This document shows, one piece after another, positions 12,545 through 36,259 of a stretch of DNA of 44,773 nt; position 1 is the stretch's first letter; each line of letters starts with the position of its first letter. The position numbers and the translations under genes were made by a program. The DNA comes from Promethearchaeota archaeon (lineage in GTDB: Archaea > Asgardarchaeota > Lokiarchaeia > Sigyniarchaeales > SOKP01). Below the pieces are notes generated by a model, which ran no database searches, was not told the DNA's origin, and saw only the letters and a list, made by a program, of their open reading frames with translations. The stretch lies in contig JBHLNF010000008.1 of assembly GCA_048937405.1 (NCBI GenBank), positions 180,825-225,597 of the forward strand, read 5' to 3'.

Positions 12545-13063
12545 ATGTTGGATGATAATAAACATGAAGTAATAGCCAATAATGTAAAAAAAAGTAATAT
12601 AAAAATCGATTGGGGAAGACAGGGAGGCGTTATTTTTGCTTACATAATTGTATTACTAGGATATTATGGTATTGTTGCTAATGTGGTTATGGTTGATCAT
12701 CTTGGTCATTATATATCTTTTACTGAAATGGATAGAACAATACTATTTTGGACCTTCGAAGTATATAACCAAACTTATTTTATACCTATTCTTCTAATAT
12801 TTCTTGTTAGTTTCTTACTTACTTTTAAAGAGGATATTCCACATTATGGAATAAAAGCGTCAATATGGCTTGTTCCTTCAATAATTATTGAAGCTTTCAT
12901 ATTTTATTGGTTCATGTTTGGTTTTGCTGCTGAACCTTTTATCATGCAATTTGGACATTGGAAGGGGTATATTCATATACTAATATTATTTGTAACTACA
13001 CTAGTTGGTTCGTTAAGTGGTATGAAAATCAAACAGATAATTGAATCAAAAAGAAAAATTTAA
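12545..13063 (+). CDS. Hypothetical membrane protein (about 4 TM helices) heading the ABC operon
   Basis: Several long hydrophobic stretches; same strand as, and 56 nt before, the dppB-like gene. Confidence 0.7.
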   Translation: MLDDNKHEVIANNVKKSNIKIDWGRQGGVIFAYIIVLLGYYGIVANVVMVDHLGHYISFTEMDRTILFWTFEVYNQTYFIPILLIFLVSFLLTFKEDIPHYGIKASIWLVPSIIIEAFIFYWFMFGFAAEPFIMQFGHWKGYIHILILFVTTLVGSLSGMKIKQIIESKRKI

Positions 13064-17153: not shown

Positions 17154-17170
17154 ATAATAATAATTAGAGG

Positions 17171-18895
17171 TTGTTAGTAATTATAGTCAATATAATAGAA
17201 GTTGTCATTATCCCAATTGTGATACTTATAATAGGCTTTTTTCTACTGAATAAGATTTTAGAAGTAAAAAGATGGGAGGATTCCAAGAAAATCTCACTTA
17301 TATTAAATTCATTTTGGACCGTTTTCAATATAATTTTCATTTTTATTATTATAAATTCTTTAGGTGAATCACCTGTTTATAAATTCTTTTTAGTTGCTGT
17401 GAATATACCCGTTGCTATATTGATCCTTTGGGGTTTTTATGAAAAAACTGTTCTAAAGTCATTTATATTGATCAGTCTTACCCAAATCGCATTGATTGTA
17501 TTATGGCTTTTATTTAGTGCAATTCCAGAAGTTATAACTATTTTTTTAACTGAAGGTGGTGATGATTTGGATGCATCCAAATTATCATTTACTCTTGCCT
17601 TTCTATTTCTTTTTGGACTATCGATTTTTATTTCACATTGGGGAGATAAAATACAATTAGTAAAATATAGAAAGTCATTTACTATTAGCAGTATAATCCC
17701 TGGGATTTATTATTTAATGCTTAATTTTATTATTCAAGGTGAAGAATTTAATAATAATATTATCTCTATTGTGATATTTAGCTTTTTAATTGCGTTTATT
17801 TCTTCATTTTTGATTAAAAAAATTGCGTATAGAACTATACAGTTTAAAGAAATAAGAGGGTTATCTATTCTTGAGAAGGGTAAGGAATTACTAGATGTAA
17901 AAGATCTTAAAGTACACTATCCACTTCTTAAAGGTGTCTTAAAAAGACAAGTTGGCGCTGTGAAAGCTGTCAATGGTGTTTCCTTTCAAATAAAAACAGG
18001 TGAAACACTCGGATTAGTTGGAGAAAGTGGATGTGGAAAAACAACTATTGCTAAAGCAATTTTAGGTTTGGTTGAAAAAACAGATGGAGAGATGAAGTTC
18101 CTAGATGAATCTATTCCTCCTGAATATTCAACTTTTTTAAGACAAAAAATTCAGATGGTTTTTCAAGACCCAGATGCATCCTTGAATCCACGTTTAAAAG
18201 TAGTAGACATCATTGCAGAACCTCTTAAGAATTTACTTGGTATTACTAATAAAATAGAAATCAGAAAACATGTTTTAAGATTATTGGATCAAGTTTCCTT
18301 AAAACGAGAACATATGGATCGTTATCCTCATGAATTTTCTGGAGGTCAAAAACAAAGAATTGTTATAGCAAGAACATTAGCTTGTAATCCTGAGTTAATA
18401 ATTTTGGATGAACCCACTTCTGCACTTGATGTATCAGTTCAAGCACAAATCCTTAATTTACTTAAAGAATTGCAAGCTAAATATGGGTATGGATTTTTAT
18501 TTATTACACATAATTTAGCTGTTGTAAATCACATTGCTGATCGTGTAGCTGTTATGTATCTTGGCAAGATTGTAGAAATTGGAAAGATGAATCAAATTTT
18601 TTCTAATCCTTCACATCCATACACTATAGCTCTTTTGAGTTCCCGTTCTGAAATTGATCCATACAATCAAGAAATCAGTTTTGTTATAAAAGGTGAAGTA
18701 CCAAGCCCAATTAGACCTCCACCTGGATGTACCTTTAATCCCCGTTGTTCTTCAGATGCTCGTACGAAAGAATGTGAAATTGAGATACCTCATAAGATTA
18801 AAATCGAAGATGACCACTTTATTTGGTGTGTAAATCCTCCTAAATCAATGCAATCAACAATTCAAAAATCTGAAGAGAGTTTATCTGCTAAATAA
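17171..18895 (+). CDS. DppF/OppF-like ABC ATPase with an N-terminal multi-pass membrane domain
   Basis: GESGCGKT, FSGGQKQR, IILDEPTSALD, HPYT and GCTFNPRC motifs; first ~220 aa hydrophobic. Exact start is uncertain (TTG at 17171). Confidence 0.88.
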   Translation: MLVIIVNIIEVVIIPIVILIIGFFLLNKILEVKRWEDSKKISLILNSFWTVFNIIFIFIIINSLGESPVYKFFLVAVNIPVAILILWGFYEKTVLKSFILISLTQIALIVLWLLFSAIPEVITIFLTEGGDDLDASKLSFTLAFLFLFGLSIFISHWGDKIQLVKYRKSFTISSIIPGIYYLMLNFIIQGEEFNNNIISIVIFSFLIAFISSFLIKKIAYRTIQFKEIRGLSILEKGKELLDVKDLKVHYPLLKGVLKRQVGAVKAVNGVSFQIKTGETLGLVGESGCGKTTIAKAILGLVEKTDGEMKFLDESIPPEYSTFLRQKIQMVFQDPDASLNPRLKVVDIIAEPLKNLLGITNKIEIRKHVLRLLDQVSLKREHMDRYPHEFSGGQKQRIVIARTLACNPELIILDEPTSALDVSVQAQILNLLKELQAKYGYGFLFITHNLAVVNHIADRVAVMYLGKIVEIGKMNQIFSNPSHPYTIALLSSRSEIDPYNQEISFVIKGEVPSPIRPPPGCTFNPRCSSDARTKECEIEIPHKIKIEDDHFIWCVNPPKSMQSTIQKSEESLSAK

Positions 18896-19380
18896 ATTTT
18901 TTATTTCAAACTAAATTTTGTATCATACTTTATTCTTAAAACTAAAGATATTAATACACTTTTAGAGGTATTAATATATCCAGTATTATATGTATAAATA
19001 GTAGTAATACATCTTTAGATTTAATAGAAAAATTCCTTGAAAGATTAAATTAAGTGAAAATTATATTTAGGGAACTAAATTTTAAGGAGTAGCTTATAAT
19101 TACTATTGATGTTATAAACTAAATTATACATCTTTCTAAAGCTGATGTAATTCTTAAAGCTGCTGAAGTGAATTCTGTAATAGGATTTTATTGGACAAAT
19201 ATTCAAAAAAATTTTTATTTTCTAAAGTAGATATAGAATAATTTTAATATACTTTTAATTATATCTTATATTCCGTCTCTTTTAAAAAATAAATTAGTTA
19301 TAATAATTTACCGAATAACCAATCTTAATTAAAATTATAGAAAACAATTAAGCATTAATTCTTCCTATATACATTTTTAT

Positions 19381-19417
19381 AGAAACATTTATAAATATAT
19401 TGTGTCTACTAAAATTC
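19381..19417 (+). promoter_or_regulatory. BRE/TATA promoter of GRE copy 1 (probably leaderless)
   Basis: TTTATAAA at 19388-19395, exactly -30 to -23 from ATG 19418, with the same spacing as in the other copies. Confidence 0.7.
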
Positions 19418-21865
19418 ATGGTAGTTCAAAGTTTTAAGTTGAATCCAATCCTAGGGACACCTTCGGAAAGGGTTCGCAAGATTAGAGATAGAATGCTATC
19501 TATGCCTAGAGAACTTGATATTGAACGAGCTCGTTGTTATACAAGAATCTATAAACAAATGGAGGATGCTCCTCCATGTATAAAAAATGTTAAGGCACTA
19601 GAGGAATTTTTACGATGTCTTCCAATAAGGATTGAAGACGATGAGCTACTTGTTGGTGTAAAATCTAGTAAAGTAAGAGCTGATCCTATCGAAATTGAAC
19701 GTGGAGGGCGTGCTAAACTTTTTGGGTTTGTCTATAATGATTCAATAGATAAAAAAATAAGAGATAATTTTAGTGCGAATTTCACTTTTATTAACCGGTA
19801 TGTTCCCTTAAAAGAAGAAGAAATTAATGAATTGAAAAACGATATAATTCCCTACTGGAATGGTAGATCAGTAGAAGATCGAAAGGTAGAATATTGGAGA
19901 GAAGCAGGTTTGCTTAATGAAAATGAGGAATCTATGACAAGAATTCCCTTTAGACGTTCTGTGACTAATACTGATATGTTTGCAGGTTCTAGGGGTCAAG
20001 GACATGTTGTTCCTGGTTATCGGCGTGTACTTAAAATGGGATTTAAAGGAATCGAAAAGATGGCGCAAGAAGGTCTTGCAAATCTCAAGGAAACAGATGA
20101 AAATTATGAACATCGAAAGGATTTTTATGAATCAGTTGTGGTAGCAGCACAAGCGGTCATCGAGTATTCTAATCGCTATGCTGATCTCGCAATGGAAATG
20201 GCACAAAATGCACCAGAAACAAGAAGGGCCGAGCTTCTGGAAATTGCTGAACGTGTAAGGCGAGTTCCTGCCCTTCCTCCAAGGACATTCATGGAAGCAC
20301 TTCAATCAATTTGGATGACAAATGTCGTCATGGAAATGAGTTATGGTGAAGGAAATATTTTTTCTCAAGGACGAGTAGACCAATATCTTTATCCATATTA
20401 CACAGTAGATGTAGCAGAAGGGCGTATTACGTATGAAGAGGCTTTAGAAGCAATTGAGGAATATTTAGTGAAACTTGCTTCAGTCGTTATAGCAGGACAG
20501 AATAATATTACTATTGGAGGATCAGACCATGATGGAAATGATGCGACTAATGATGTGTCTTACATGTTTCTTGAAGCAATTGCAAATGTAAAAAGTTTAT
20601 TAAACACATTGTCAATTAGGATTTCTTCCAAAACACCCCATGAATTTATAAAAAGAACTATTGAAGCTATTAAATATACTGGTGGGATGGGAATTCATAA
20701 TGATGATGTTTTAATACCACAGCTTAATAATACAAGTTATTCATTGGAAGATGCCCGTGATTACTCCCTTGTAGGTTGTGTAGAACCTGCGGGTACTGGA
20801 AATGATTTCTCCTATACAGCCGGTAATGCCATTCAGATTTCAATCCTTCTAAATATGGCATTAAATGAGGGACGCACTATTTTATCTGGAACTAAAACTG
20901 TTGGAGCAAAAACACCTCCAGCAAGCGTTTTTAAATCTTTTGAAGATGTGAAGAATGCCTGGGTCGAACAAGTTAAGTTTGCTATAGATCTTACTGTGAA
21001 AAAAGCTGAATTAAAGGATAAAGCCTTTGCTGATTATATGCCTTCCCCATTACTTTCATCTTCGATAGAAGGATGTCTTGAGAGCGGAATGGATGCTACT
21101 CGAAATGGAGCAAAATACAATAATAATCCTATGGGTGCACAAGGATTAGCAACAGTAACTAATTCCTTAGCTGCAATTCGCTGGGCTGTATTTGAAGAAA
21201 AAATAGTAACAATGGAAGAATTAGTTAAACATATGAATAATAATTTTAAAGGGGCAGAATCTCTACGTGAAAAACTACGAAATAAGGCACCTAAATATGG
21301 TAATGGTGATGAAAGAACCGATGACCTTGCCAAATGGGTAGCAACTACCCTCTGTGAAAATACAAGAAAATATAAAGCAAGGGGTGGTGATGGTATCTAT
21401 CATAATTGCCTCGTATCAGCGGGAAGTCAGATTATGGAGGGTAAATTGCTAGGAGCAACTGCAGATGGAAGATTATTTGGTGAACCTGTAGCAAACGGTA
21501 TTTCTCCTGCGAATGGAACAGAAAAGAATGGTCTTACTATGGCTCTCCGATCAATAGCTTATGCAACAGCTGAACCACATCTCACTAATGGAGCCTCAAT
21601 GAATGTTAGAATCAATCCTACCTTATTAGAAACAGATGAAGGAATTGAAAAATTTACTTCTATTGTAGAGGCTTATTTAGAGTTAGGAGGACGAGAACTT
21701 CAAGTAAATCCGATAAGTTCAGAAACACTCCGGGACGCACAAGTTCATCCAGAAAAATATCCTGACCTTTCAGTTAAAGTTTCAGGATACTCTGCTCGAT
21801 TCATAGATATAGCAAAAGAGCTTCAAGACGATATTATCAACAGAACCGTTTTTGAAGAATTATAA
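19418..21865 (+). CDS. Glycyl-radical enzyme (PFL superfamily, PFL2/eliminase-like), copy 1
   Basis: GQGH, GRVDQYLYPYY, Cys loop SLVGCVEP, PKYGNGD, GATADGR and Gly loop VKVSGYS. Start set at ATG 19418 by homology to the MVVQ starts of copies 2-4. Confidence 0.93.
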   Translation: MVVQSFKLNPILGTPSERVRKIRDRMLSMPRELDIERARCYTRIYKQMEDAPPCIKNVKALEEFLRCLPIRIEDDELLVGVKSSKVRADPIEIERGGRAKLFGFVYNDSIDKKIRDNFSANFTFINRYVPLKEEEINELKNDIIPYWNGRSVEDRKVEYWREAGLLNENEESMTRIPFRRSVTNTDMFAGSRGQGHVVPGYRRVLKMGFKGIEKMAQEGLANLKETDENYEHRKDFYESVVVAAQAVIEYSNRYADLAMEMAQNAPETRRAELLEIAERVRRVPALPPRTFMEALQSIWMTNVVMEMSYGEGNIFSQGRVDQYLYPYYTVDVAEGRITYEEALEAIEEYLVKLASVVIAGQNNITIGGSDHDGNDATNDVSYMFLEAIANVKSLLNTLSIRISSKTPHEFIKRTIEAIKYTGGMGIHNDDVLIPQLNNTSYSLEDARDYSLVGCVEPAGTGNDFSYTAGNAIQISILLNMALNEGRTILSGTKTVGAKTPPASVFKSFEDVKNAWVEQVKFAIDLTVKKAELKDKAFADYMPSPLLSSSIEGCLESGMDATRNGAKYNNNPMGAQGLATVTNSLAAIRWAVFEEKIVTMEELVKHMNNNFKGAESLREKLRNKAPKYGNGDERTDDLAKWVATTLCENTRKYKARGGDGIYHNCLVSAGSQIMEGKLLGATADGRLFGEPVANGISPANGTEKNGLTMALRSIAYATAEPHLTNGASMNVRINPTLLETDEGIEKFTSIVEAYLELGGRELQVNPISSETLRDAQVHPEKYPDLSVKVSGYSARFIDIAKELQDDIINRTVFEEL

Positions 21866-22019
21866 ATATAAGCAATATTTTAAATATCAATTTTAAAATA
21901 TCTTTTTTTCTATTTTTGAACTTTGTTAATTCTATAACTTAGAATCTATGAAGAATCATATTCAAGATAAGATTAGATATGAATTGCTCTTTCTTCCTTA
22001 TAAAGATGTTACTCTACAA

Positions 22020-22605
22020 ATGAACTACGCACAGCCTAAAGGCTGTTACTTCCTACGAGTACATAATCGCTTCTAGTACGAGTTGGGCTGTATGTCGTAG
22101 AAAACCATTCCATTATGTTAGGAATGATTCCTCATTCACAGAGGGTTTATGCGATAGGAATTCATAGTTATGCTTGGAAAATTAAAAATGAGTCATGATC
22201 TCATGATTTTGAACATAAAATTGAGATATTTACCAACATGAGTTCCACAGTTGCATGTAATACTTCTTTTGAAGAGCAACGGTTTTTTTTATTTTTTGTC
22301 TTTATAACAGACCTTTGTAATCTTAGACTCATCAATTCTTATTACTCTTTTACCCATTTTTTCCGCTTTATAGGTTACGAATTCGACAAACCTTAATCTA
22401 TAACCTTTGTTGTAAACCGAACAGTTGAAGATTTTATGTGTTTTATTCTTTTTAGTATCCCCTATTTCTTTCTTTTAAGTTAGTTTTATTTTAAATATAA
22501 TAAAGAACAATCAGTTTAAACAAAGGAGCGCTTAATCGTTTAATGATTTTTCTTCTCATCCTCATTTCATCCCATCCCCAAAGGGAGGGATTTTCTTGAG
22601 TTATA
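22020..22605 (-). mobile_element. Decayed, internally deleted IS200/IS605-family (tnpB, IS1341-like) element with both hairpin ends
   Basis: On the minus strand the left end reads AAATCCCTCCCTTTGGGGATGGGATGAA (~22566-22593) and the right end GGAAGTAACAGCCTTTAGGCTGTGCGTAGTTCAT (22020-22053). They flank a TnpB C-terminal remnant. The left boundary is approximate. Confidence 0.8.
22053..22405 (-). pseudogene. tnpB: tnpB pseudogene fragment (C-terminal Zn-ribbon/RuvC-III region)
   Basis: Manual translation gives RFVEFVTYKAEKMGKRVIRIDESKITKVCYKDKK*KKPLLFKRSITCNCGTHVGKYLN..., then FLSHKPSVNEESFLT*WNGFLRHTAQLVLEAIMYS*. This matches the TnpB pattern YKA..G..V....TS..C..CG...C.CG...DRD.N, with stops and loss of DRD. 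Confidence 0.8.
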
Positions 22606-22635
22606 ATGATAAAATGCTATACCAGAATATTCAAG

Positions 22636-22672
22636 CAAAAACTTTAAATGTACGATGATTATTTAACAACAC
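22636..22672 (+). promoter_or_regulatory. BRE/TATA promoter of GRE copy 2 (divergent version)
   Basis: CAAAAAC-TTTAAATG, with the TATA starting at 22643, 30 nt before ATG 22673. Confidence 0.6.
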
Positions 22673-25123
22673 ATGGTAGTTCAAAATTTTAAGTTGAACC
22701 CAATCCCCGGAACTCCTTCGGAAAGGGTTCGCAAGATTAGAGATAGAATGCTATCTATGCCTAGAGAACTTGATATTGAACGAGCTCGTTGTTATACAAG
22801 AATCTATAAGCAAATGGAGGATGCACCTCCATGTATGAAAAATGTTAAAGCATTAGAGGAATTTTTACGATCCCTTCCAATAAGGATTGAAGACGATGAG
22901 CTACTTGTTGGTGTAAAATCTAGTAAAATAAGAGCAGATCCAATGGAAATAGAACGAGGAATGCGTGCTTCAATTTTTGGATTTCTCTATGATGATTCAA
23001 TAGATCAAAAAATAAGAGATGCATTTGCCCAAAACTTTTCATGGGTTAATCGATATGTTCCCTTAACAGAACAAGAAGTTGATGAGATGAAAAATGAAAT
23101 TCTTCCCTACTGGAAAGATAGGAACATAGAGGCTCGACAGAGAGAATATTATAAAAAAGCAGGTTTGATTGAAGAACCAAAGGAATTTAAGGGTCCAGCA
23201 GTTCCCTTTATGGATTATATGGGTGGCACTGATATGTTTGCGGGTGCTCATGGTCAGGGACATATCATTCCAGGTTATCGGCGTGTACTTAAGATGGGAT
23301 TCAAGGGAATCGAAAAGATGGCACAAGAGGGACTCGCAAAACTCGAGGAAACAGATGATAATTACGAACAACGAAAGGATTTTTATGAATCAGTTGTAAT
23401 TGCAGCACAAGCAGTGATCGAATATTCCAATCGCTATGCAGATCTCGCAATGGAAATGGCACAAAATGCACCAGAAACAAGAAGAGCTGATCTTCTGGAA
23501 ATTGCTGAACGTGTAAGGCGAGTTCCTGCCCTTCCTCCAAGAACATTCATGGAAGCACTTCAATCCATTTGGATGACGAATGTTGTTATGGAGATGAGCT
23601 ATGGTGACGGAAATATCTTTTCTCAAGGACGAGTAGATCAATATCTTTATCCATATTTCACAGCAGATGTAGCAGAAGGGCGTATTACATATGAAGAGGC
23701 TTTAGAAGCAATTGAGGAATATTTAGTGAAACTTGCTTCAGTCGTTATAGCAGGACAGAACAATATTACTATTGGAGGATTAGATTATGATGGAAATGAT
23801 GCGACAAATGACGTATCCTTTATGTTTCTTGAGGCAATTGCAAATGTAAAAAGTCTATTAAATACATTATCAATAAGGATCTCTTCCAAGACACCCCATG
23901 AGTTTGTAAAAAGATCGATTGAAGCTTTTAAATTTACCGGTGGAATGGCAATTCATAATGATGACATTTTAGTACCTCAACTTAATAATACAGGATATTC
24001 ATTAGAAGATGCTCGAGATTATTCACTCGTAGGGTGTGTAGAACCCGCAGGTACCGGAAATGATTTCTCCTATACGGCAGGTAATGTCGTACAGATTTCA
24101 ATCCTTTTAAACATGGCATTAAATGAGGGACGTAATCTTTTTTCAGGAAACAAAACTGTTGGCGCGAAAACACCCCCAGCAAGCACTTTTAAATCTTTTG
24201 AAGACGTGAAAAATGCTTTTGTAGAACAACTTAAATTTGCTATAGATCTTACTGTAAAAAAGGCTGAATTAAAGGATAAGGCATTTGCAGATTATTTACC
24301 TTCCCCATTGCTTTCATCTTCAATAGAAGGATGTCTCGAGAGCGGAATGGATGGAACTCGAAATGGAGCAAAATATAATAATAATCCTATGGGTTCACAA
24401 GGGTTAGCAACGGTCACTAATTCCTTAGCTGCAATTCGTTGGGCTGTATTTGAAGAAAAATTAGTATCAATGGAAGATTTAGTTAAGAATATGAATAATA
24501 ACTTCAGAGGAGCTGAAAATCTTCGAGAAAAATTACGAAATAAGGCTCCTAAATATGGAAATGGTGATGAAAAAACAGACGAACTTGCCAAATGGATAGC
24601 AACTACCCTTTGTGAACTTACAAGGACATATAAAGCAAGGGGTGGTGATGGTATTTATCATAATTGCCTTGTATCCTCTGGAACTCAAATTATGGAGGGA
24701 CAAATGTTAGGAGCGACTGCTGATGGAAGATTAATGGGTCAACCTGTAGCGAATGGTATTTCTCCTGCAAATGGAACAGAAAAGAATGGTCTTACCATGG
24801 CACTTAGATCAGTGGCTTATGCAACAGCAGATCCTCATCTCACTAATGGAGCCGCAATGAATATCAGAATCAATCCTACTTTATTAGAAACAGATGAAGG
24901 AATTGAAAAATTTACTTCTATTGTAGAGGCTTATTTAGAAATAGGAGGAAGGGAGCTTCAGATAAATCCAATAAGTTCAGAAACACTTAAAGACGCACAA
25001 GTTCATCCCGAAAAATATCCTGATCTTTCAGTTAAAGTTTCAGGCTACTCTGCTCGATTTATAGATATAACAAAAGAGCTTCAAGACGATATTATCGACC
25101 GAACTGTTTTCAGTGAATTATAA
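22673..25123 (+). CDS. Glycyl-radical enzyme, copy 2
   Basis: Same motifs as copy 1 (SLVGCVEP, VKVSGYS); full length, 816 aa. Confidence 0.93.
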   Translation: MVVQNFKLNPIPGTPSERVRKIRDRMLSMPRELDIERARCYTRIYKQMEDAPPCMKNVKALEEFLRSLPIRIEDDELLVGVKSSKIRADPMEIERGMRASIFGFLYDDSIDQKIRDAFAQNFSWVNRYVPLTEQEVDEMKNEILPYWKDRNIEARQREYYKKAGLIEEPKEFKGPAVPFMDYMGGTDMFAGAHGQGHIIPGYRRVLKMGFKGIEKMAQEGLAKLEETDDNYEQRKDFYESVVIAAQAVIEYSNRYADLAMEMAQNAPETRRADLLEIAERVRRVPALPPRTFMEALQSIWMTNVVMEMSYGDGNIFSQGRVDQYLYPYFTADVAEGRITYEEALEAIEEYLVKLASVVIAGQNNITIGGLDYDGNDATNDVSFMFLEAIANVKSLLNTLSIRISSKTPHEFVKRSIEAFKFTGGMAIHNDDILVPQLNNTGYSLEDARDYSLVGCVEPAGTGNDFSYTAGNVVQISILLNMALNEGRNLFSGNKTVGAKTPPASTFKSFEDVKNAFVEQLKFAIDLTVKKAELKDKAFADYLPSPLLSSSIEGCLESGMDGTRNGAKYNNNPMGSQGLATVTNSLAAIRWAVFEEKLVSMEDLVKNMNNNFRGAENLREKLRNKAPKYGNGDEKTDELAKWIATTLCELTRTYKARGGDGIYHNCLVSSGTQIMEGQMLGATADGRLMGQPVANGISPANGTEKNGLTMALRSVAYATADPHLTNGAAMNIRINPTLLETDEGIEKFTSIVEAYLEIGGRELQINPISSETLKDAQVHPEKYPDLSVKVSGYSARFIDITKELQDDIIDRTVFSEL

Positions 25124-25136
25124 ATTATAATTTAAC

Positions 25137-25154
25137 TTTCTTTTTTTTTTTTTT
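25137..25154 (+). terminator. Oligo-T archaeal terminator after GRE copy 2
   Basis: T14 run shortly after the stop codon. Similar runs follow copies 1 (21903-21909), 3 (27723-27732) and 4 (30380-30389). Confidence 0.6.
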
Positions 25155-25202
25155 ATTACTGTTCTATTTCATTCGTTATATTAAATCGAAATAAATTATT
25201 AT

Positions 25203-25239
25203 AAGAATATTTATAAATATAAAATGTCTATTAAAATTC
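25203..25239 (+). promoter_or_regulatory. BRE/TATA promoter of GRE copy 3
   Basis: TTTATAAA at 25210-25217 (-30 to -23), followed by TATAAAATGTCTATTAAAA shared with copy 4. Confidence 0.7.
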
Positions 25240-27690
25240 ATGGTAGTTCAAAATTTTAAGTTGAACCCAATCCCCGGAACTCCTTCGGAAAGGGTTCGCA
25301 AGATTAGAGATAGAATGCTATCTATGCCTAGAGAACTTGATATTGAACGAGCTCGTTGTTATACAAGAATCTATAAACAAATGGAAGATGCACCTATATG
25401 TATGAAAAATGTTAAAGCGTTAGAGGAATTTTTACGGCACCTTCCAATAAGAATTGAAGAAGATGAGCTTCTTGTAGGCGTAAAATCTAGTAAAATAAGA
25501 GCAGATCCACTTGAAATTGAACGGGGAATGCGTGCTGCAATTTTTGGGTTTGTTTATAATGATGCAATAGATAAAAAAATGAGAGATGCGTTTGCACAAA
25601 ATTTTACTTTTATTAACAGATATGTTCCCTTAACAGAACAAGAAGTTGATGAGTTGAAAAATGAAATTCTTCCCTACTGGAAAAATCGAACAGTAGCGGC
25701 CCGAAAGGAGCAATATTTTAAAGAAGCAGGATTGATTGATGAATCGAAGAAAAAAGTGGACGGAACAATTCCTATGAGAGGCTCTGCGGGTGGTACTGAT
25801 ATGTTTGCAGGTGCCAGTGGTCAAGGACATACCATTCCTGGTTATCGGCGTGTACTTAAAATGGGATTCAAGGGAATCGAAAAGATGGCGCAAGAAGGTC
25901 TTGCAAATCTCAAGGAAACAGATGAAAATTACGATCATCGAAAGGATTTTTATGAATCAGTTGTGGTAGCAGCACAAGCGGTCATCGAGTATTCTAATCG
26001 CTATGCTGATCTCGCAATGGAAATGGCACAAAATGCACCAGAAACAAGAAGGGCCGAGCTTCTGGAAATTGCTGAACGTGTAAGGCGAGTTCCTGCCCTT
26101 CCTCCAAGGACATTCATGGAAGCACTTCAATCAATTTGGATGACAAATGTCGTCATGGAAATGAGTTATGGTGAAGGAAATATTTTTTCTCAAGGACGAG
26201 TAGACCAATATCTTTATCCATATTACGCAAATGATGTAGCAGAAGGTTGTATTACGTATGAAGAGGCTTTAGAAGCAATTGAGGAATATTTAGTGAAACT
26301 TTCCTCTGTTGTTATAGCAGGACAAAATAATGTTACTATTGGAGGATTAGACCATGATGGAAATGATGCGACTAATGATGTGTCTTATATGTTTCTTGAA
26401 GCAATTGCAAATGTAAAAAGCTTATTAAATACATTGTCAATTAGGATCTCTTCCAAAACACCCCATGAGTTTGTAAAAAGAACTGTTGAAGCTATTAAAT
26501 ATACAGGTGGGATGGGAATTCATAATGATGATGTTTTAGTTCATCAGCTTAATAATACTGGATATTCATTGGAAGATGCCCGAGATTATTCACTCGTAGG
26601 GTGTGTAGAACCTGCGGGTACTGGAAATGATTTTTCTTATACAGCCGGTAATGCCATTCAGATTTCAATCCTTTTAAATATGGCATTAAATGAAGGACGT
26701 ACTATTTTTTCAGGAACTAAAACTGTTGGCGCAAAAACACCCCCAGCCAGTGCTTTTAAATCATTTGAAGATGTGAAGAACGCCTGGGTCGAACAAGTTA
26801 AGTTTGCAATAAATCTTACTGTGAAAAAAGCTGAATTAAAAGATAAAGCCTTTGCTGATTATTTACCTTCCCCATTGCTTTCATCTTCAATAGAAGGATG
26901 TCTTGAGAGCGGAATGGATGCTACTCGAAATGGAGCAAAATACAATAATAATCCTATGGGTGCACAAGGATTAGCAACAGTAACTAATTCCTTAGCTGCA
27001 ATTCGCTGGGCTGTATTTGAAGAAAAAATAGTGACCATGGAAGAATTAGTTAAACATATGAATAATAATTTCAAAGGAGCAGAAGCTCTACGTGAAAAAC
27101 TACGAAATAAGGCACCTAAATATGGCAATGGTGATGAAAGAACCGATGACCTTGCCAAATGGATTGCAAATACCCTCTGTGAAAATACAAGAAAATATAA
27201 AGCAAGGGGTGGTGATGGTATCTATCATAATTGCCTCGTATCTTCTGGAACTCAGATTATGGAAGGGAAAATGCTAGGAGCAACTGCAGATGGAAGATTA
27301 TTTGGTGAACCCGTAGCAAACGGTATTTCTCCTGCAAATGGGACAGAAAAGAATGGTCTTACTATGGCTCTCCGATCAATAGCTTATGCAACAGCTGAAC
27401 CACATCTCACTAATGGAGCCTCAATGAATGTTAGAATCAATCCTACCTTATTAGAAACAGATGAAGGAATTGAAAAATTTTCTTCTATTGTAGAAGCTTA
27501 TTTAGAGATGGGAGGTCGAGAACTTCAAGTAAATCCGATAAGTTCAGAAACACTCCGAGATGCACAAGTTCATCCAGAAAAATACCCTGACCTTTCAGTT
27601 AAAGTTTCAGGATACTCTGCTCGATTCATAGATTTAGCAAAGGATCTTCAGGAAGATATTATTGACAGAACCGTTTTTAATGAATTATAA
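25240..27690 (+). CDS. Glycyl-radical enzyme, copy 3
   Basis: Same motifs as the other copies; 816 aa. Confidence 0.93.
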   Translation: MVVQNFKLNPIPGTPSERVRKIRDRMLSMPRELDIERARCYTRIYKQMEDAPICMKNVKALEEFLRHLPIRIEEDELLVGVKSSKIRADPLEIERGMRAAIFGFVYNDAIDKKMRDAFAQNFTFINRYVPLTEQEVDELKNEILPYWKNRTVAARKEQYFKEAGLIDESKKKVDGTIPMRGSAGGTDMFAGASGQGHTIPGYRRVLKMGFKGIEKMAQEGLANLKETDENYDHRKDFYESVVVAAQAVIEYSNRYADLAMEMAQNAPETRRAELLEIAERVRRVPALPPRTFMEALQSIWMTNVVMEMSYGEGNIFSQGRVDQYLYPYYANDVAEGCITYEEALEAIEEYLVKLSSVVIAGQNNVTIGGLDHDGNDATNDVSYMFLEAIANVKSLLNTLSIRISSKTPHEFVKRTVEAIKYTGGMGIHNDDVLVHQLNNTGYSLEDARDYSLVGCVEPAGTGNDFSYTAGNAIQISILLNMALNEGRTIFSGTKTVGAKTPPASAFKSFEDVKNAWVEQVKFAINLTVKKAELKDKAFADYLPSPLLSSSIEGCLESGMDATRNGAKYNNNPMGAQGLATVTNSLAAIRWAVFEEKIVTMEELVKHMNNNFKGAEALREKLRNKAPKYGNGDERTDDLAKWIANTLCENTRKYKARGGDGIYHNCLVSSGTQIMEGKMLGATADGRLFGEPVANGISPANGTEKNGLTMALRSIAYATAEPHLTNGASMNVRINPTLLETDEGIEKFSSIVEAYLEMGGRELQVNPISSETLRDAQVHPEKYPDLSVKVSGYSARFIDLAKDLQEDIIDRTVFNEL

Positions 27691-27722
27691 ACAATAATAT
27701 TGATTTAATAATTTAATATTAA

Positions 27723-27732
27723 TTTTTTTTTT
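27723..27732 (+). terminator. Oligo-T terminator after GRE copy 3
   Basis: T10 run about 30 nt after the stop codon. Confidence 0.5.
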
Positions 27733-27885
27733 CTATTACTATATTATCGTATTTATGATAAAACTTTGAAATTAAATATTAATAAAAAATATTTTAGTTG
27801 TAGAAGTAATAATTTATATCTATTTCTAATTCGGAAGTTTTAGAAATCTACAGGATAAAAAGCTGAATATTTATTTTTGTATTAT

Positions 27886-27922
27886 AAAAACATTTATAAA
27901 TATAAAATGTCTATTAAAAATC
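27886..27922 (+). promoter_or_regulatory. BRE/TATA promoter of GRE copy 4
   Basis: AAAAACA-TTTATAAA (TATA 27893-27900, -30 to -23 from ATG 27923). Confidence 0.7.
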
Positions 27923-30364
27923 ATGGTAGTTCAAGATTTTAAGCTGAGCCCTCTCCAAGGAAAACCATCCGAGAGGGTCCGAAAAATCAGAGATAACATG
28001 TTAGCCAATCCCTTCGAATATGATCTTGAGCGAGCACGATGCTATACAAGGATGTACAAGAAATTTGAAGCTTCTCCTCCCTGTATGAAGAAAGCTAAAT
28101 CATTAGAGGAATTCTTACGTTGTCTTCCTATAAGGATTGATGACAATGAACTTCTTGTAGGAGTAAAATCAAGTAAACCAAGAGCAGATCCTATTGAAAT
28201 AGAACAAGGACGACAGGTTAAATTATATGGTTTTCTCTTAGACGATAAGATTGAAGAAAAAGCGAAAGACACTCTCCGTAGATATCACCCCACTATTAGA
28301 CGTTATGTTCCTTTTTCAGAAGATGAACTTAAAGAATGGAAAAATGAAATCATCCCTTTCTGGAAAGGAAAAACAATGACTGACAGAAGGAATGAACTTT
28401 TTAGAGAAGCAGGATTGATTGAAGAAAATGTGGGACACGTTCCTCCATCAATGTCAATGTTACCTGGAAATTCTTTTGTATATTCAGTAATGCAGGGCCA
28501 CACCATTCCAGGTTATCGACGGGTTCTTAAGATGGGATTTAAAGGTATCGAAAAGATGGCACAAGAAGGACTTTCAAATCTCAAGGAGACAGATGAGAAT
28601 TATACTCAACGCAAGGATTTTTATGAATCAGTTCAAGTGACTTCTAAAGCTGTTTGTGATTATTCTAATCGATATGCAGATCTCGCAATGGAAATGGTAC
28701 AAAATGCATCAGAAACAAGAAGGGCTGAACTTCTAGAAATTGCTGAACGTGTAAGAAGGGTACCTGCTCAACCCCCTAGAACATTTATGGAAGCCCTTCA
28801 ATCAATATGGATAACTAACGTTGTTATGGAGATGAGTTATGGTGAAGGAAATATCTTTTCTCAAGGAAGAGTAGATCAATATCTTTATCCATATTATGCC
28901 GCAGACTTAGCAGAAGGACGTATTACTTATGAAGAAGCTTTAGAAGCAATTGAAGAATATTTAGTGAAACTTGCGTCTGTTGTTATAGCTGGACAGAATA
29001 ATGTTACTATTGGAGGATTAGACAAGGATGGAAATGATGCGACTAATGAGATATCGTATATGTTTCTTGAAGCTATTGCAAATGTCAAAAGTTTATTAAA
29101 CACGTTATCAATCAGAATCTCTTCTAAGAGCCCTCGTAATTTTGTCAAAAGAACTATTGAAACTTTTCGACACACAGCAGGAATGGGTATTCATAATGAT
29201 GAAATCTTAGTACCACAGCTTCAAGAAGATGGCTATTCACTAGAAGATGCCCGAGATTACTCACTCGTAGGGTGTGTAGAACCTCATGGTACAGGGTTTG
29301 ATTTTTCTTATACTGCAGGTAATGGTGTTAGGTTTACACTAGTACTTGGTATGGCATTAAATGGAGGACGTATGCTTTATTCAGGAGGTCGAGTTGTTGG
29401 AGCAAAAACTCCTGAACCCAGTACTTTTAAAACTTTTGAAGATGTAAAGCAAGCTTTTGTTGATCAACTTACTTTTGCAGTAGATAAATGTGTGCAAATG
29501 TCTGAATTAAAAGATAAAGCTTTTGCAGAATACTTTCCATCTCCATTACTTTCCTCTACAATAGAAGGATGTCTTGAGAGTGGAATGGATGCAACTCGAA
29601 ATGGGGCTCGTTATAATAACAATCCTATTGGTTCACAAGGTTTAGCAACTGTTGTAAATTCATTAGCAGCAGTTCGATGGGCTGTATTCGAGGAAAAATT
29701 ATTAACAATGGGAGAATTAGCTGAACATATGAATAACAATTTCAAAGGAGCGGAATTACTTAGAGAAAAGCTAAGAAACAAGGCACCTAAATATGGTAAT
29801 GGTAACGAAAAAATAGATGAATTAGCACGGTGGGTTGCAAATACTTTTTGTGATATTGTAAGAAAACATTCTGCCAGAGGTGGTGTTGGTATATATCGTC
29901 CTTGCCTTGTATCAGCAGGGGGTCAATTAGCCGAGGGTAGAATGTTAGGAGCGACTCCAGATGGAAGACTCTCTGGTGAACCAGTATCTAACGGTGTTTC
30001 TCCAGTAAATGGGACCGAACAAAATGGACTCACCATGGCACTCCGTTCTATAGCGCATGCTACACGTGAAGCTCTTCTAACTGATGGCGTATCAATGAAT
30101 ATCAGAATCAATCCTAGTATGATAGAAACAGATGAAGGTGTAGAGCAAATGACATCAATATTAGAGGCATATTTTGATTTAGGAGGAAGAGAACTTCAGA
30201 TTAATCCTATAGGTTCAGAAACTCTTAAAGACGCACAAGCTCATCCTGAAAAATATCCTGACTTATCCGTTAAGGTGACCGGCTATTCTGCTCGCTTTAT
30301 AGACCTTGGTAGAGGTCTACAGAATGATATTATTAATCGTACAGAATTTAGTGAATTTAAATAA
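27923..30364 (+). CDS. Glycyl-radical enzyme, copy 4 (most divergent)
   Basis: SLVGCVEPHG, GATPDGR and VKVTGYS motifs; 813 aa. Confidence 0.93.
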   Translation: MVVQDFKLSPLQGKPSERVRKIRDNMLANPFEYDLERARCYTRMYKKFEASPPCMKKAKSLEEFLRCLPIRIDDNELLVGVKSSKPRADPIEIEQGRQVKLYGFLLDDKIEEKAKDTLRRYHPTIRRYVPFSEDELKEWKNEIIPFWKGKTMTDRRNELFREAGLIEENVGHVPPSMSMLPGNSFVYSVMQGHTIPGYRRVLKMGFKGIEKMAQEGLSNLKETDENYTQRKDFYESVQVTSKAVCDYSNRYADLAMEMVQNASETRRAELLEIAERVRRVPAQPPRTFMEALQSIWITNVVMEMSYGEGNIFSQGRVDQYLYPYYAADLAEGRITYEEALEAIEEYLVKLASVVIAGQNNVTIGGLDKDGNDATNEISYMFLEAIANVKSLLNTLSIRISSKSPRNFVKRTIETFRHTAGMGIHNDEILVPQLQEDGYSLEDARDYSLVGCVEPHGTGFDFSYTAGNGVRFTLVLGMALNGGRMLYSGGRVVGAKTPEPSTFKTFEDVKQAFVDQLTFAVDKCVQMSELKDKAFAEYFPSPLLSSTIEGCLESGMDATRNGARYNNNPIGSQGLATVVNSLAAVRWAVFEEKLLTMGELAEHMNNNFKGAELLREKLRNKAPKYGNGNEKIDELARWVANTFCDIVRKHSARGGVGIYRPCLVSAGGQLAEGRMLGATPDGRLSGEPVSNGVSPVNGTEQNGLTMALRSIAHATREALLTDGVSMNIRINPSMIETDEGVEQMTSILEAYFDLGGRELQINPIGSETLKDAQAHPEKYPDLSVKVTGYSARFIDLGRGLQNDIINRTEFSEFK

Positions 30365-30379
30365 ATCTTTTAGTTAATC

Positions 30380-30389
30380 TTTTTTTTTT
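30380..30389 (+). terminator. Oligo-T terminator after GRE copy 4
   Basis: T10 run 15 nt after the stop codon. Confidence 0.5.
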
Positions 30390-30589
30390 AATTTGAGAAT
30401 ATAATCAAATTTATTATCTTTAATATGCATTTTACATAGGAGATTATACTAAATATCTTTATCAATAAATATTACTGACACTAATATCATTACTTGAGAT
30501 GTGAAATCTAAAGATAATCTTTACTTATAAAAATTAAGAAAAATAGAGCTATATTATTTAGGTTGATATAAGCAAATTTTTTTTTCCAC

Positions 30590-31534
30590 TTAGCGAGTTA
30601 ACCCAGACCACTTTACATTTTTAGCTCCAGTACTTGTAGCAATTTCAAGAAAATTTTCCATTTCCTCTTTTGTCATTAATGGTTCATCTCTTAAAGACCA
30701 TTCTTTGCCTAATCTTGTATATTTAATTTCACAGAGTTTATTAAAGGCTAATATATCCCATTGTTCAGGAATATTATCTAATTCATTTACAATAAATTCT
30801 CCAATACCTTTAATATTCTTTTCCGTGGCAGTATAGTGTGGTATTATTGGTGTCCTTATCCACATTTTCTTTCCATTATCTTTGACATAACTTGAAATCC
30901 ATCTAGCATTTTCTAAAATCGTTTTATTTGATACTCCTGTATATTCTTCATGTTGTTTAGGATCAATAACCTTTATATCAAAAAGGACTATATCAACGTA
31001 AGGTAATAAATCTTGATATACTTTTTTACTTGAATATCCACATGTATCTAAAGCAGTAGAAATATCATTTTCTTTACATTTTTTCAAAAATTTTAAGAGA
31101 AAATCTGATTGTAATGTTGGTTCACCTCCAGAAACCGTTATACCTCCTTTTGTTTTATCAAAAAATATTTTTTCTTTTTCAACATCATGAACAAGATCTT
31201 CTAAATCCCACCATTTACCCCACATATTTAATGCTGTACTAGGACAAGCTTCTACACAATCTCCGCAACTAGTACATCTCTCTCTATTAATATGCAAGCC
31301 ATCTTCTTCAAAAAATAAAACATCTTCTTGACAGGTCTCTATGCAACTATTACAACCGATACACTTTCGCTCCATCCAATAAATTTGAGGTTTCTTTGGA
31401 ATTGATTCTGGATTATGACACCATGCACAATTTAAGAGACACTTGTTAAAAAAAATTGTTGTACGAATACCAGGACCATCATCAGTAGACATTCTCTCAA
31501 GTTTAAAAATTAAACCCTTAGATTTTGACTCCAT
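30590..31534 (-). CDS. Glycyl-radical enzyme activating enzyme (radical SAM, with a 2x[4Fe-4S] ferredoxin insert)
   Basis: DGPGIRTTIF, CLLNCAWCHNPES (CxxxCxxC), CIGCNSCIETC and CTSCGDCVEACP inserts, GGITVSGGEP and DTCG. Confidence 0.95.
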   Translation of the reverse strand: MESKSKGLIFKLERMSTDDGPGIRTTIFFNKCLLNCAWCHNPESIPKKPQIYWMERKCIGCNSCIETCQEDVLFFEEDGLHINRERCTSCGDCVEACPSTALNMWGKWWDLEDLVHDVEKEKIFFDKTKGGITVSGGEPTLQSDFLLKFLKKCKENDISTALDTCGYSSKKVYQDLLPYVDIVLFDIKVIDPKQHEEYTGVSNKTILENARWISSYVKDNGKKMWIRTPIIPHYTATEKNIKGIGEFIVNELDNIPEQWDILAFNKLCEIKYTRLGKEWSLRDEPLMTKEEMENFLEIATSTGAKNVKWSGLTR

Positions 31535-31824
31535 ATCACATCTCTATTTTAATTTTTAAGATACAATATTCAATAAAAAATCAATTACTTTATTTTAAAA
31601 ATTGTTAGTTTCTTAAATCTTTTATGAATTATTTGATTTTTTATGGCAATTAGCTGAAACTCGTTGAAATGAAAGAATCAAACCTTTAAATATAATATGG
31701 CAAGCTACTATTTTAAAAAAAATATCAAAGATTGATTTCAAGAAGGTTGAACTTATATTTTACGAAAAGTTTATACCCAAATCGAGTATTTTACTTTTTA
31801 TTAAAAAAAAGGTTTTAAACTAAG

Positions 31825-33183
31825 ATGTATAAATATAAGGTTTCTATTTTAGGTACGGGATTTATTGGCTTATGCTCTGCCGCTTGTTTTGCTCTAAGAG
31901 ATATTAAAGTTTTGGCATCTACGCATAATGAGAAGAAAGCGAATATTATAAACGAATATAAATCGCCTTTTTTTGAGGAAGGTTTAGATGAGATGCTTAC
32001 CGAAATTAAGCAGAAAAAATCAGACCTTCTTAAATGTTTAATTGATCCTATTCAAGCAATATTAGATACAGATATAATGATGATTACTCAAGGAACTCCA
32101 ATGCGGACAGATAATTCAATTGATTTAAGTTATATTGAAAGTACTGCTAAAGAAATTGGGGAGGCTTTAAAACAAGATAATAAATATCGTTTGGTTGTCG
32201 TGCGATCTACCGTTGTTCCAGGGACCTCTAGGAATCTTGTAGGAAAAATAATTACAGAAGTTTCTGGAAAAATTCCAGGAAAAGATTTTGGATTATGTAT
32301 GCAACCAGAGTTCTTAGCGGAAGGGCGGTCAATTGAAGATACACTTAGACCTGATAGAATCATTATAGGATCAATAGATAATAAAAGTGGAGATATGCTT
32401 CAAGAGTTCTATGAGTATTTTTACGGAGATCATTTAATAAATTGTCCAATAAAAAGAATGAATTTAGAAAGTGCAGAACTCGTTAAATATGGCAATAATT
32501 GCTTATTATCAACTAAAATATCTTATGCCAATGAGTTTGCCAATTTGGCTGAATTAGTTCCTAATGTTGATGTAGTCCAAGTAATGGAAGGAGTAGGGTT
32601 GGACTATAGGATTAATCCTAGATTTCTTCGTGCAGGGGTGGGTTTTGGGGGTGCATGCTTTCATAAAGATGTAAACGCTATAACCAAGTGGGCAAGATCT
32701 AAGGGATATATTGCAAAATTATTAGAAGCTGTTTTAGAACGTAATGACCTGAGAGCAATTCGAATTGTTGATATCGCTGAAGGGTTAGTCGGAAATTTGG
32801 ATAGCAAAAAAGTAACTTTGCTTGGTTTATCTTTTAAACCAGGGACTGATGATATGAGAGAAGCTCCGAGTATTAGAGTTATTAATGAATTGATTAAAAG
32901 AAATGTTTCTGATATTATTGGATATGATCCTAAAGCTAAGGAATCTGCTGAAGAAGCAATTGGCAATAAGATTAAATACGCAGAAACTATAGAAGAAGCA
33001 CTAAAAGATTCAGAATTAGTCTTTTTGATTACAGAATGGAATGACTTTAAAAAACTATCTCCTCATGATTTTAAAAAATATATGAAATCTCCAAATCTAG
33101 TCGATGGTAGAAGGATTTATGATTATGATGAATTTAATAAGGCTATAAATTTCCGTGCAATGGGTCGGATAAATTTGAATTAA
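31825..33183 (+). CDS. ugd: UDP-glucose/GDP-mannose dehydrogenase family protein
   Basis: GTGFIG, RSTVVPG, PEFLAEG, AELVKY, GFGGACFHKD (catalytic Cys) and LGLSFKPGTDDMREAPS. Confidence 0.9.
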   Translation: MYKYKVSILGTGFIGLCSAACFALRDIKVLASTHNEKKANIINEYKSPFFEEGLDEMLTEIKQKKSDLLKCLIDPIQAILDTDIMMITQGTPMRTDNSIDLSYIESTAKEIGEALKQDNKYRLVVVRSTVVPGTSRNLVGKIITEVSGKIPGKDFGLCMQPEFLAEGRSIEDTLRPDRIIIGSIDNKSGDMLQEFYEYFYGDHLINCPIKRMNLESAELVKYGNNCLLSTKISYANEFANLAELVPNVDVVQVMEGVGLDYRINPRFLRAGVGFGGACFHKDVNAITKWARSKGYIAKLLEAVLERNDLRAIRIVDIAEGLVGNLDSKKVTLLGLSFKPGTDDMREAPSIRVINELIKRNVSDIIGYDPKAKESAEEAIGNKIKYAETIEEALKDSELVFLITEWNDFKKLSPHDFKKYMKSPNLVDGRRIYDYDEFNKAINFRAMGRINLN

Positions 33184-36147: not shown

Positions 36148-36259
36148 TTCCTCTCGCATAAACCCTTTGCGAAAAAGAAATCAAACTTTACATGATGGAA
36201 TGATATTAAACGATATATAGAACAATCTGGACTGGAAGTGGTTGCGAACTCGTAGGAAG
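36148..36259 (+). mobile_element. Second remnant of the tnpB 3' end / reRNA scaffold region
   Basis: Aligns without gaps to the reverse complement of 22049-22160 at 83/112 identities (counted by hand), ending in the shared ACTCGTAGGAAG. The terminal hairpin is missing. Confidence 0.75.

Follow-up and report, generated by a model that had tools for sequence, protein, structure and literature searches.

The 44,773-nucleotide stretch of DNA analyzed here (the window) comes from a Promethearchaeota archaeon and carries a tandem array of four glycyl radical enzyme (GRE) genes, copies A to D, which run toward one convergent gene for a GRE-activating enzyme. In the reading that we favor, with a probability of roughly 0.55, the array encodes eliminase-type GREs that share one chemistry, each copy acting on a different related substrate or leaving group, with the substrates fed in by an importer and an aldehyde as the product. 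The analysis shows that the genes are intact, where their clade belongs, which neighbors are conserved, that the activase is single, how selection acts on the copies and that gene conversion has occurred; from the protein sequences and from the gene neighborhoods of the array and its relatives we infer what reaction is catalyzed, that it yields an aldehyde, that the importer is involved and that the copies differ in specificity.

An initial annotation of this DNA had described four intact, full-length GREs in direct tandem, and the description holds: open reading frames (ORFs) of 815, 816, 816 and 813 amino acids (aa) span positions 19418-30364, share the N-terminal start MVVQ, and match PF02901 at E values of 1e-159 to 1e-164 and PF01228 at E values of about 1e-24. 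Identity to copy A is 86% for B, 90% for C and 73% for D. The synonymous distances (dS) between copies range from 0.21 to 0.93, with 0.21 for A and C, about 0.42 for A-B and B-C, and about 0.9 for the comparisons with D; over the whole gene, the ratio of nonsynonymous to synonymous distances (dN/dS) among the four copies is 0.15-0.26. The annotation had also noted the lack of small beta and gamma subunits, and inspection of the intergenic DNA of the array likewise found no plausible small-subunit ORF and no small Cys-rich ORF.

The possibility raised at that stage, that the assembler had joined strain variants of a single gene into a false array, was checked. The contig that holds the window is 225 kb long and belongs to a 4.47-Mb metagenome-type assembly (G000; completeness 100% by marker genes, estimated contamination 5.69%), and repeated genes have broken contigs at the array locus in other assemblies (G024, G061 and G048), which lends such an artefact some initial plausibility. 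The array is nevertheless judged not to be a misassembly, because the dS values between copies lie far beyond strain variation and because independent assemblies of sister species hold orthologous copies: G044 has orthologs B', C' and D', arranged as in the window and preceded by the same ATPase genes, and G053 has two such copies. The intergenic regions of the array are also unlike one another, one of them containing a mobile repeat, and purifying selection acts on each copy. An artefact is thus extremely improbable.

In the proposed mechanism, the activase would install the glycyl radical on the Gly loop common to every copy, KV(S/T)GYSARF, and the radical would then move to the Cys of the GCVEP loop, which would abstract a hydrogen from a substrate carbon that bears a hydroxyl. 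The Glu of this loop and a His on strand beta1 would drive the heterolytic loss of the neighboring group, as in glycerol dehydratase (GD), propanediol dehydratase (PD), CutC and HypD. The product would be an aldehyde, to be oxidized by an aldehyde:ferredoxin oxidoreductase (AOR) and reduced by an Fe-alcohol dehydrogenase (Fe-ADH), and the substrates would enter the cell through the adjacent Opp/Dpp-type ABC importer.

The catalytic part of this model is anchored in residues that do not vary. Both loops are present in all four copies, and the eliminase-type assignment that had been drawn from the GCVE loop is reinforced by the invariance of Cys455 and Glu457 (the Cys-x-Glu motif) and of the beta1 His197 in 40 of the 40 clade members examined. 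His197 aligns with GD His164, at a beta1 site that is occupied by His160 in HypD, Asp216 in CutC and Gln193 in IslA (PMC8473560). A 2026 review confirms His164, Cys433 and Glu435 as GD residues and states that Cys-x-Glu marks 1,2-eliminases and newer isomerases (PMC13450708). In the Gly loop, Lys replaces the Arg of the usual RVxG[YF] in copies A-D, and the same change is found in the bacterial sister clade. Two other assignments were rejected at this level. A true pyruvate formate-lyase (PFL) would have Cys-Cys where the copies have a single Cys, and TIGR01255, the PFL model, gives them 131-140 bits with a cut-off of 994. The Arg/Gln/Arg clamp of the sulfonate type is likewise missing: the beta1 Gln site is His, the Arg four residues before it (beta1 -4) occurs in copy A only, and there is no Arg at the four beta8 positions examined (Cys665, Val667, Ser/Ala669 and Thr/Ser/Gly671).

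Placement relative to characterized enzymes was assessed by NCBIfam cut-offs, phmmer searches of the PDB and Foldseek identities. No NCBIfam model reaches its cut-off for copies A-D. On TIGR01774, the model for the PFL2/glycerol dehydratase subfamily, they score 533-554 bits, below the cut-off of 678.2; by comparison, the model gives 768-877 bits for nine ordinary GREs of Bacillota and related genomes and 986 for a PflD equivalog. The best scores on equivalog models (HpsG, HpfG, HypD and CutC) are 445-489 bits, with cut-offs of 1000-1100. The copies therefore fall outside CutC (TIGR04394, 451-473 bits, cut-off 1050), HypD (NF043068, 482-485 bits, cut-off 1100) and the C-S lyases and sulfopropanediol dehydratases IslA, IseG, HpsG and HpfG (NF048011/NF048009, 445-489 bits, cut-off 1000). 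When ten more distant GRE loci were labeled with NCBIfam, they yielded one equivalog only, a PflD. Among solved structures, the best sequence match is CutC (1.4e-134), with GD at 1.2e-119 and the eliminases as a group at 1e-134 to 1e-92. An AlphaFold2 model with a predicted local distance difference test score of 90 and a predicted template-modeling (TM) score of 0.92 superimposes on solved GREs with TM scores of 0.83-0.90, and on GD, PD and CutC with 0.88-0.90. Sequence identities are 31% to GD, 30-31% to PD, 29-31% to CutC, 31% to HpzG, 30% to Archaeoglobus fulgidus PFL2, 28% to HypD and to IslA, 28-29% to YbiW and PflD, 26% to HplG, 25% to benzylsuccinate synthase (BSS) and 24% to HPAD. The earlier description of an uncharacterized GRE clade thus stands, with every model below cut-off and 24-31% identity to solved enzymes.

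The putative active site has features of its own. Within the clade, N314-I315 on beta2 (with F316 nearly so) and Q362-N363-N364 on beta3 are invariant, and Y467-T468-A469 is invariant apart from a Gly and an Ala in a few members. Thirteen residues are absent before beta3, at the point where the Phe395-bearing loop of CutC falls. The pocket residues of GD, which we take to be His281, Ser282, Tyr339, Asp447 and Tyr640, align with Asn314, Ile315, Gln362, Ala469 and Val667. Because the clade's residues differ from those of GD and because of the 13-residue deletion, the pocket is unlike any known one, and the usual aromatic lid is probably absent.

The importer and the aldehyde enzymes enter the model through the organization of the locus. 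The order of a family-5 solute-binding protein, a 172-aa membrane protein, two permeases, two ATPases, one or more GREs and a convergent activase is found in at least 10 species of the genus, and in relatives this conserved locus carries one or two GREs ahead of the activase. The binding protein holds the same position in relatives, and orthologs of the 172-aa protein, 61-76% identical, occur at the same place in G008, G014, G015 and Loki_b31. Each ATPase has an extra N-terminal region of some 250 aa in which hydropathy shows about seven hydrophobic segments, despite the presence of two normal permeases; the homologs in relatives are of similar length and in the same position, and seem to retain the extensions. 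In two bacterial relatives, too, the GREs have Opp-type neighbors. An AOR and an Fe-ADH adjoin the activase, either between GRE and activase or just beyond, in G015, G014 and Loki_b31, and because these genes sit inside the GRE locus of three relatives, they suggest an aldehyde product and provide the strongest hint of one. The window's own genome has orthologs of the two, 84% and 75% identical, side by side on another contig (G000:C7:277619-280809; L118 and L120). A second AOR and Fe-ADH pair lies on contig C18. The possibility that the AOR ortholog is a selenoprotein was considered and set aside: the in-frame TGA stands in the place of a Trp codon, some 11 residues from the C-terminus, and the protein is slightly shortened.

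If the chemistry is common to all four copies, what differs between them is most likely the substrate, because the catalytic core is the same whereas residues 96-196 and pocket positions on beta1, beta6 and beta8 differ. Paralog divergence is concentrated in residues 96-196, a stretch of helices followed by a low-confidence loop (the model is low at 165-200) that leads into beta1. Among paralogs A, B, C and D, dN/dS is 0.42-0.79 in this segment and 0.11-0.17 in the rest of the gene. The corresponding values are 0.11 and 0.13 when C is compared with its ortholog, 0.09 and 0.12 (segment) versus 0.09 and 0.11 (rest) when D is compared with its orthologs, and 0.30 and 0.09 for B and its ortholog, these ortholog comparisons (dS about 0.4-0.5) being made at a synonymous distance similar to that between paralogs. 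The low ortholog values argue that the segment is not a free-running loop and that each paralog type's version is under purifying selection. Copy A diverges fast in the segment, with a dN of 0.22 to the G044 C ortholog, while copy C has a dN of 0.047 to the same sequence. Elsewhere in the genes, gene conversion homogenizes parts of copies A-C: A and C are identical over 291 nucleotides (nt; codons 233-329), and B and C over 137 nt at the 5' end. Shuffled sequences give far shorter runs than these two, and no long run falls inside codons 96-196.

The variable pocket positions have counterparts in enzymes of known structure. At beta1 -4, copy A has Arg, B His, C Ser and D Val, while the 809-aa type of the clade has Glu, Asn or Thr and the basal type has Asp; at beta6 +17 the residues are Ala in A, Val in B, Ala in C and Gly in D; and positions on beta8 also vary between copies. 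The beta1 -4 site corresponds to IslA Arg189 and HypD Arg156, and beta6 +17 to CutC Tyr506 and HypD Tyr450, all of which contact substrate (PMC8473560). Residues 96-196, beta1 -4 and beta6 +17 are therefore likely to form a specificity element, and the range of related substrates that the initial annotation had proposed is suggested by the paralog-specific purifying selection on the segment together with the variable contact positions. A literature search found no substrate-gating region of CutC that maps onto the variable segment.

Several points weigh against the reading as a whole. The dN/dS of the variable segment is below 1, and positive selection is not demonstrated. The importer is absent at the G024 locus, and in the window's own genome the AOR and Fe-ADH are unlinked to the array. 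The binding protein is so divergent that it gives no clue to a ligand: it has one PDB match, with an E value of 3e-4 over 41 residues, and its NCBIfam matches are confined to short parts of nickel- and staphylopine-binding proteins. The Cys-x-Glu motif is found in GRE isomerases as well and does not by itself prove net elimination, and GRE pockets are hard to predict from sequence (PMC8473560). Finally, residues 96-196 include helices that precede the barrel, of the kind that form the dimer interface in other GREs (PMC13450708).

Since the segment lies among dimer-interface helices, a role other than substrate choice is possible. The copies might be dosage or regulatory isozymes acting on one substrate, with residues 96-196 tuning dimer assembly or keeping co-expressed paralogs from mixing. 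The pre-barrel helices are a conserved GRE dimer interface (PMC13450708), and residues 96-165 are such helices in the model; each copy has its own promoter-like box, that of copy B being different; and the clade shows no variation at most of the pocket positions transferred from other GREs. Yet the most divergent stretch, at about 166-196, runs into beta1 and includes the -4 position that contacts substrate in IslA and HypD, and pocket positions on beta6 and beta8 differ as well. Each type is moreover conserved among orthologs over a dS of about 0.4-0.5, which would be unexpected for dosage copies under gene conversion, and the first 95 residues, also pre-barrel helices, are almost identical in A, B and C. 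We therefore regard isozymes on a single substrate as an unlikely explanation.

The Cys-x-Glu motif bears on a further alternative, namely that the array encodes isomerases like YbiW, PflD and HplG. Such enzymes would act on an imported cyclic compound, for example one derived from a sugar or resembling hydroxyproline, and would open its ring at a C-O or C-N bond with no leaving group released. Importers with family-5 binding proteins carry oligosaccharides in some archaea and Thermotogae, and on beta3 the invariant Q362-N363-N364 offers polar side chains to which a polar substrate could bind. We consider it quite unlikely: the PflD equivalog model gives the copies 392-401 bits with a cut-off of 1109, their 26-29% identity to YbiW, PflD and HplG is no closer than that to the dehydratases, and the conserved locus is without sugar-phosphate or aldolase genes, while AOR and Fe-ADH point to a free aldehyde. 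Another option starts from the unusual pocket. The family might catalyze a GRE reaction that has yet to be described, namely the radical cleavage, at a C-O or C-N bond, of larger ether-, glycoside- or peptide-type molecules taken up by the cell; the missing lid loop would make room for such a molecule, and the 96-196 cassette would select the leaving group or tail for each paralog. This proposal is speculative and unlikely, and related-substrate eliminases remain the reading that we prefer.

The elements of the window discussed so far, and those of the intergenic DNA considered below, are collected in Table 1.

Table 1. Positions of the array, the importer genes and associated elements in the window.
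Feature	Position	Strand	Remarks
GRE copy A (P0001)	19418-21865	+	815 aa; beta1 -4 residue Arg
GRE copy B (P0002)	22673-25123	+	816 aa; beta1 -4 His, beta6 +17 Val
GRE copy C (P0003)	25240-27690	+	816 aa; beta1 -4 Ser
GRE copy D (P0004)	27923-30364	+	813 aa; older subgroup; beta1 -4 Val, beta6 +17 Gly
Paralog-specific variable segment, codons 96-196	19703-20005 (copy A)	+	B ~22958-23263, C ~25525-25830, D ~28208-28501
GRE-activating radical-SAM enzyme (P0005)	30590-31534	-	314 aa; convergent to array
Family-5 (Opp/Dpp/Nik-type) solute-binding protein, very divergent	9975-12317	-	780 aa; PF00496 1.3e-22; transcription divergent from importer genes
Membrane protein with four hydrophobic segments	12545-13063	+	172 aa; first gene of importer operon; no Pfam or NCBIfam family
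Opp/Dpp-type ABC permease 1	13120-14190	+	PF00528; NCBIfam OppB/DppB/NikB-like models below cut-offs
Opp/Dpp-type ABC permease 2	14216-15211	+	PF00528 and OppC_N
Two Opp/Dpp-type ABC ATPases	15243-18895	+	636 and 574 aa; PF00005 and PF08352
TATA-box-like palindromic promoter element ACATTTATAAATATAAAATGT	27890-27910	+	precedes copy D
Box related to ACATTTATAAATATAAAATGT	25207-25227		precedes copy C
Box related to ACATTTATAAATATAAAATGT	19385-19405		precedes copy A
Non-coding repeat element, ~590 bp, MITE-like (miniature inverted-repeat transposable element)	22020-22610	.	between copies A and B; short ORFs only

The convergent gene encodes a radical S-adenosylmethionine (SAM) enzyme that scores 310 bits on TIGR02494 (cut-off 174), with its second-best score on the HypD-activase model, and that has a CX3CX2C motif and an insert with two ferredoxin-type Cys clusters. 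The single convergent activase with a ferredoxin insert that the initial annotation had reported is, by protein and family searches, the only GRE activase found in the genome, the next best place scoring 42 bits. Seven PFL-like GREs are encoded in the same genome: the four of the array, a fifth clade member on contig C7 that is 72% identical to copy C, and two unrelated GREs, on contigs C13 and C27, that are 34% identical to C. The Gly loops of the five clade copies are almost identical, which argues for a shared activase within the clade, and the single activase likely serves all five. The two unrelated GREs have the Gly loops RVAGYSDYF and RVAGFSAYF, and given that activase specificity depends on the Gly loop, they may or may not be served as well. 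One of them (G000:C27:190925-192907; L007) has a GCVYI Cys loop without the Glu, lacks the beta1 His, carries the RVAGFSAYF loop, and belongs to a separate, unassigned class; no activase gene was found next to it.

As far as the sequence goes, separate promoters and terminators for the individual copies are plausible, given the upstream boxes and the T runs after the stop codons. A box, ACATTTATAAATATA(A/T)AATGT, lies 12-33 nt 5' of the ATG of copies A, C and D, with 3, 1 and 0 mismatches respectively; it has no other occurrence in the window, and the same box precedes the C- and D-type genes of the sister species G044 and G053. Copy B has a weaker box, CTTTAAATG, upstream. Runs of 7-14 T follow each GRE stop codon. 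A bacterial promoter scan returned 47 sites with 53 expected from shuffles, the bacterial model not being applicable to archaea, and an Rfam scan of positions 19000-32000 at E values up to 0.1 gave no match. Part of the 807-nt gap between A and B is occupied by the repeat of about 590 bp, which is read as a MITE-like insertion because the genome has at least 10 copies of it at 73-82% identity. A 112-nt stretch at about 36148-36259 of the window matches part of this repeat at 74% identity.

The clade is found in 20 of the 54 species genomes of the genus (G000 included), with one to five copies in each. The proposed expansion is consistent with these counts, since G000 has the highest number, five, and the other 19 clade-bearing species (among 53 searched) have one to four. 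In an IQ-TREE tree, the first G044 copy is the partner of copy B (support 99), the second clusters with C and A, and the third forms a group with D and G053 (support 100); orthologs of D occur also in G067. The orthologs of B and C are at G044 C13:402561-405008 and C13:405108-407555. Because B and C pair with separate G044 copies, their split is older than the speciation; copy A has no ortholog in G044 and is the extra, youngest copy. Four subgroups of orthologs are distinguished in the tree: the basal type (817-819 aa), the D type, the 809-aa type that includes the C7 copy, and the 815-aa type with A, B and C. Several species carry one copy of one type alone, which indicates that the copies do not depend on each other and rules out obligate heteromers. 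The fifth clade copy, of the 809-aa type (G000:C7:919341-921767; L018 9341-11770), is flanked by a methyltransferase-like gene and uvrA, and uvrB lies further upstream. The 809-aa type of relatives sits directly behind the importer and ahead of the 815-aa type, and the solitary position of the G000 copy indicates that the ancestral locus was split in the lineage of G000, G044 and G053.

Beyond the genus, the named homologs that are at least 62% identical are all from Asgard metagenome-assembled genomes (MAGs; Loki/Promethearchaeota, Thor, Odin, Hod and Hermod), and the sister group, about 50% identical, comes from uncultured Dehalococcoidia, Chloroflexia, Thermodesulfobacteriota, Smithella and Actinomycetota and from a Freyarchaeota genome, so that the subfamily spans Asgard archaea and uncultured sediment bacteria. 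No paper on this GRE family in Dehalococcoidia was found in the literature. Of 41 family loci in a scan of species genomes, 15 had at least two tandem GREs, four had at least three and 10 had Opp-type parts, the corresponding figures for more distant GRE loci being 2/38 for tandem GREs and 0/38 for Opp-type parts; these counts are descriptive only, the loci being related to each other. Arrays of two or three family GREs occur in bacterial relatives (L036, L037 and L040; Chloroflexia and Deltaproteobacteria MAGs), and one Chloroflexia MAG has five family copies across two loci. That the four-copy array is real can be upheld, but because multi-copy arrays with one activase occur across the whole family, bacteria included, it is less exceptional than the initial annotation implied. 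At another locus (L045; Promethearchaeota Zod_Metabat.1389), a clade GRE adjoins two opposite-strand GREs (30-31% identical) and a different activase (34% identical), and several GRE systems are thus clustered at one place.

Other neighbors vary with the lineage. A TetR regulator follows the activase in most of the array's relatives. A 308-aa MerR-TetR fusion regulator is found upstream in seven bacterial loci, and a gene resembling HpaB or 4-hydroxybutyryl-CoA dehydratase recurs in three of the bacterial loci. On a Freyarchaeota chromosome (CP147778), a gene of the alkyl-sulfatase type, with metallo-beta-lactamase and alkyl sulfatase dimerization domains (L044 5970-7217), lies directly upstream of a family GRE and activase, and this neighbor may hint at alcohol-type substrates. 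In the window itself, a type-B carboxylesterase gene (COesterase, E 4e-122) at 5208-6707 and a DHDPS-Fae fusion gene at 6768-8255 lie upstream of the importer.

A quite different function has been put forward in the literature for enzymes of this kind. Asgard GREs with a single Cys and a ferredoxin-insert activase, from Hermodarchaeota and Thorarchaeota, were assigned to the alkylsuccinate and benzylsuccinate synthases (Ass/Bss) on the basis of 29-33% identity and the single Cys (PMC8163825), and by extension the array enzymes would add hydrocarbons to fumarate. A Hermodarchaeota-labeled protein (P0082) is 66% identical to copy C, and the bacterial relatives adjoin acyl-CoA dehydrogenases and TetR-type regulators, one such locus coming from a Smithella MAG. 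The enzymes named in that study as alkyl/benzylsuccinate synthases are probably related Asgard proteins. Against such a function, matches to BSS and methylalkylsuccinate synthase (MASS) have E values of 1e-67 to 1e-70, far from the 1e-134 to 1e-92 of the eliminases, and identity to BSS is 25%. The small-subunit genes present in characterized succinate synthases are missing from the array, the eliminase Glu of Cys-x-Glu and the beta1 His are invariant, and the single Cys on which the published assignment partly rests is common to all GREs other than PFL. A succinate synthase function is not supported for this clade by these comparisons, and we consider it very improbable. The results argue against the claim for such Asgard enzymes, a claim that has shaped views of Asgard hydrocarbon degradation.

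The locus also has value as an experimental system. All PFL-like GREs of known function are bacterial, and the archaeal clades, for which validation is lacking, form a clear gap in the field (PMC13450708); an earlier survey had found that many Asgard GREs group with no characterized enzyme (PMC6258724). The locus offers a natural test set, with five putative specificity variants on an invariant core, an activase, a candidate importer and candidate aldehyde enzymes, and the divergent binding protein might serve as bait for the ligand. A candidate specificity element within the GRE fold stands out when paralogs are set against orthologs, and a genome with a single activase and seven GREs of three types is relevant to the question of how specific activases are. 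Should the family prove to catalyze a new reaction, this would be the first function for an archaeal PFL-like GRE, with a naturally modular specificity element and one promiscuous activase serving all seven GREs of the cell.

Comparison with well-studied GREs places the array clade closest to the eliminases, although with distinct features. CutC (PDB 5FAU, 5A0U and 9F3W) is the best PDB sequence match and has an eliminase mechanism with an aldehyde product, but in the clade its Asp216 is replaced by His, its Phe395 loop is deleted and its Tyr506 is replaced by Ala, Val or Gly, and the array locus is without microcompartment genes. HypD (PDB 6VXC/6VXE) resembles the clade in its beta1 His160, while its Arg156 at the -4 position is matched in copy A only. 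The only archaeal PFL-like GRE that has been studied structurally, A. fulgidus PFL2 (PDB 2F3O), has a single Cys and a function that is unknown or disputed; it belongs to a separate clade, is 30% identical, and has no known link to an array or importer. The best structural matches are GD (Clostridium butyricum DhaB1, PDB 1R8W) and the GRE-type PDs (5I2G and 9RCO), with TM scores of 0.88-0.89. They have in common with the array clade the Cys-x-Glu loop and the beta1 His, the proposed protonator of the leaving hydroxyl, and are also single-subunit enzymes with a ferredoxin-insert activase and an Fe-ADH partner in their pathways. The array clade differs from them in being only 30-31% identical, in having Lys instead of Arg in the Gly loop, in its family's links to an ABC importer and AOR, and in forming tandem arrays of paralogs.

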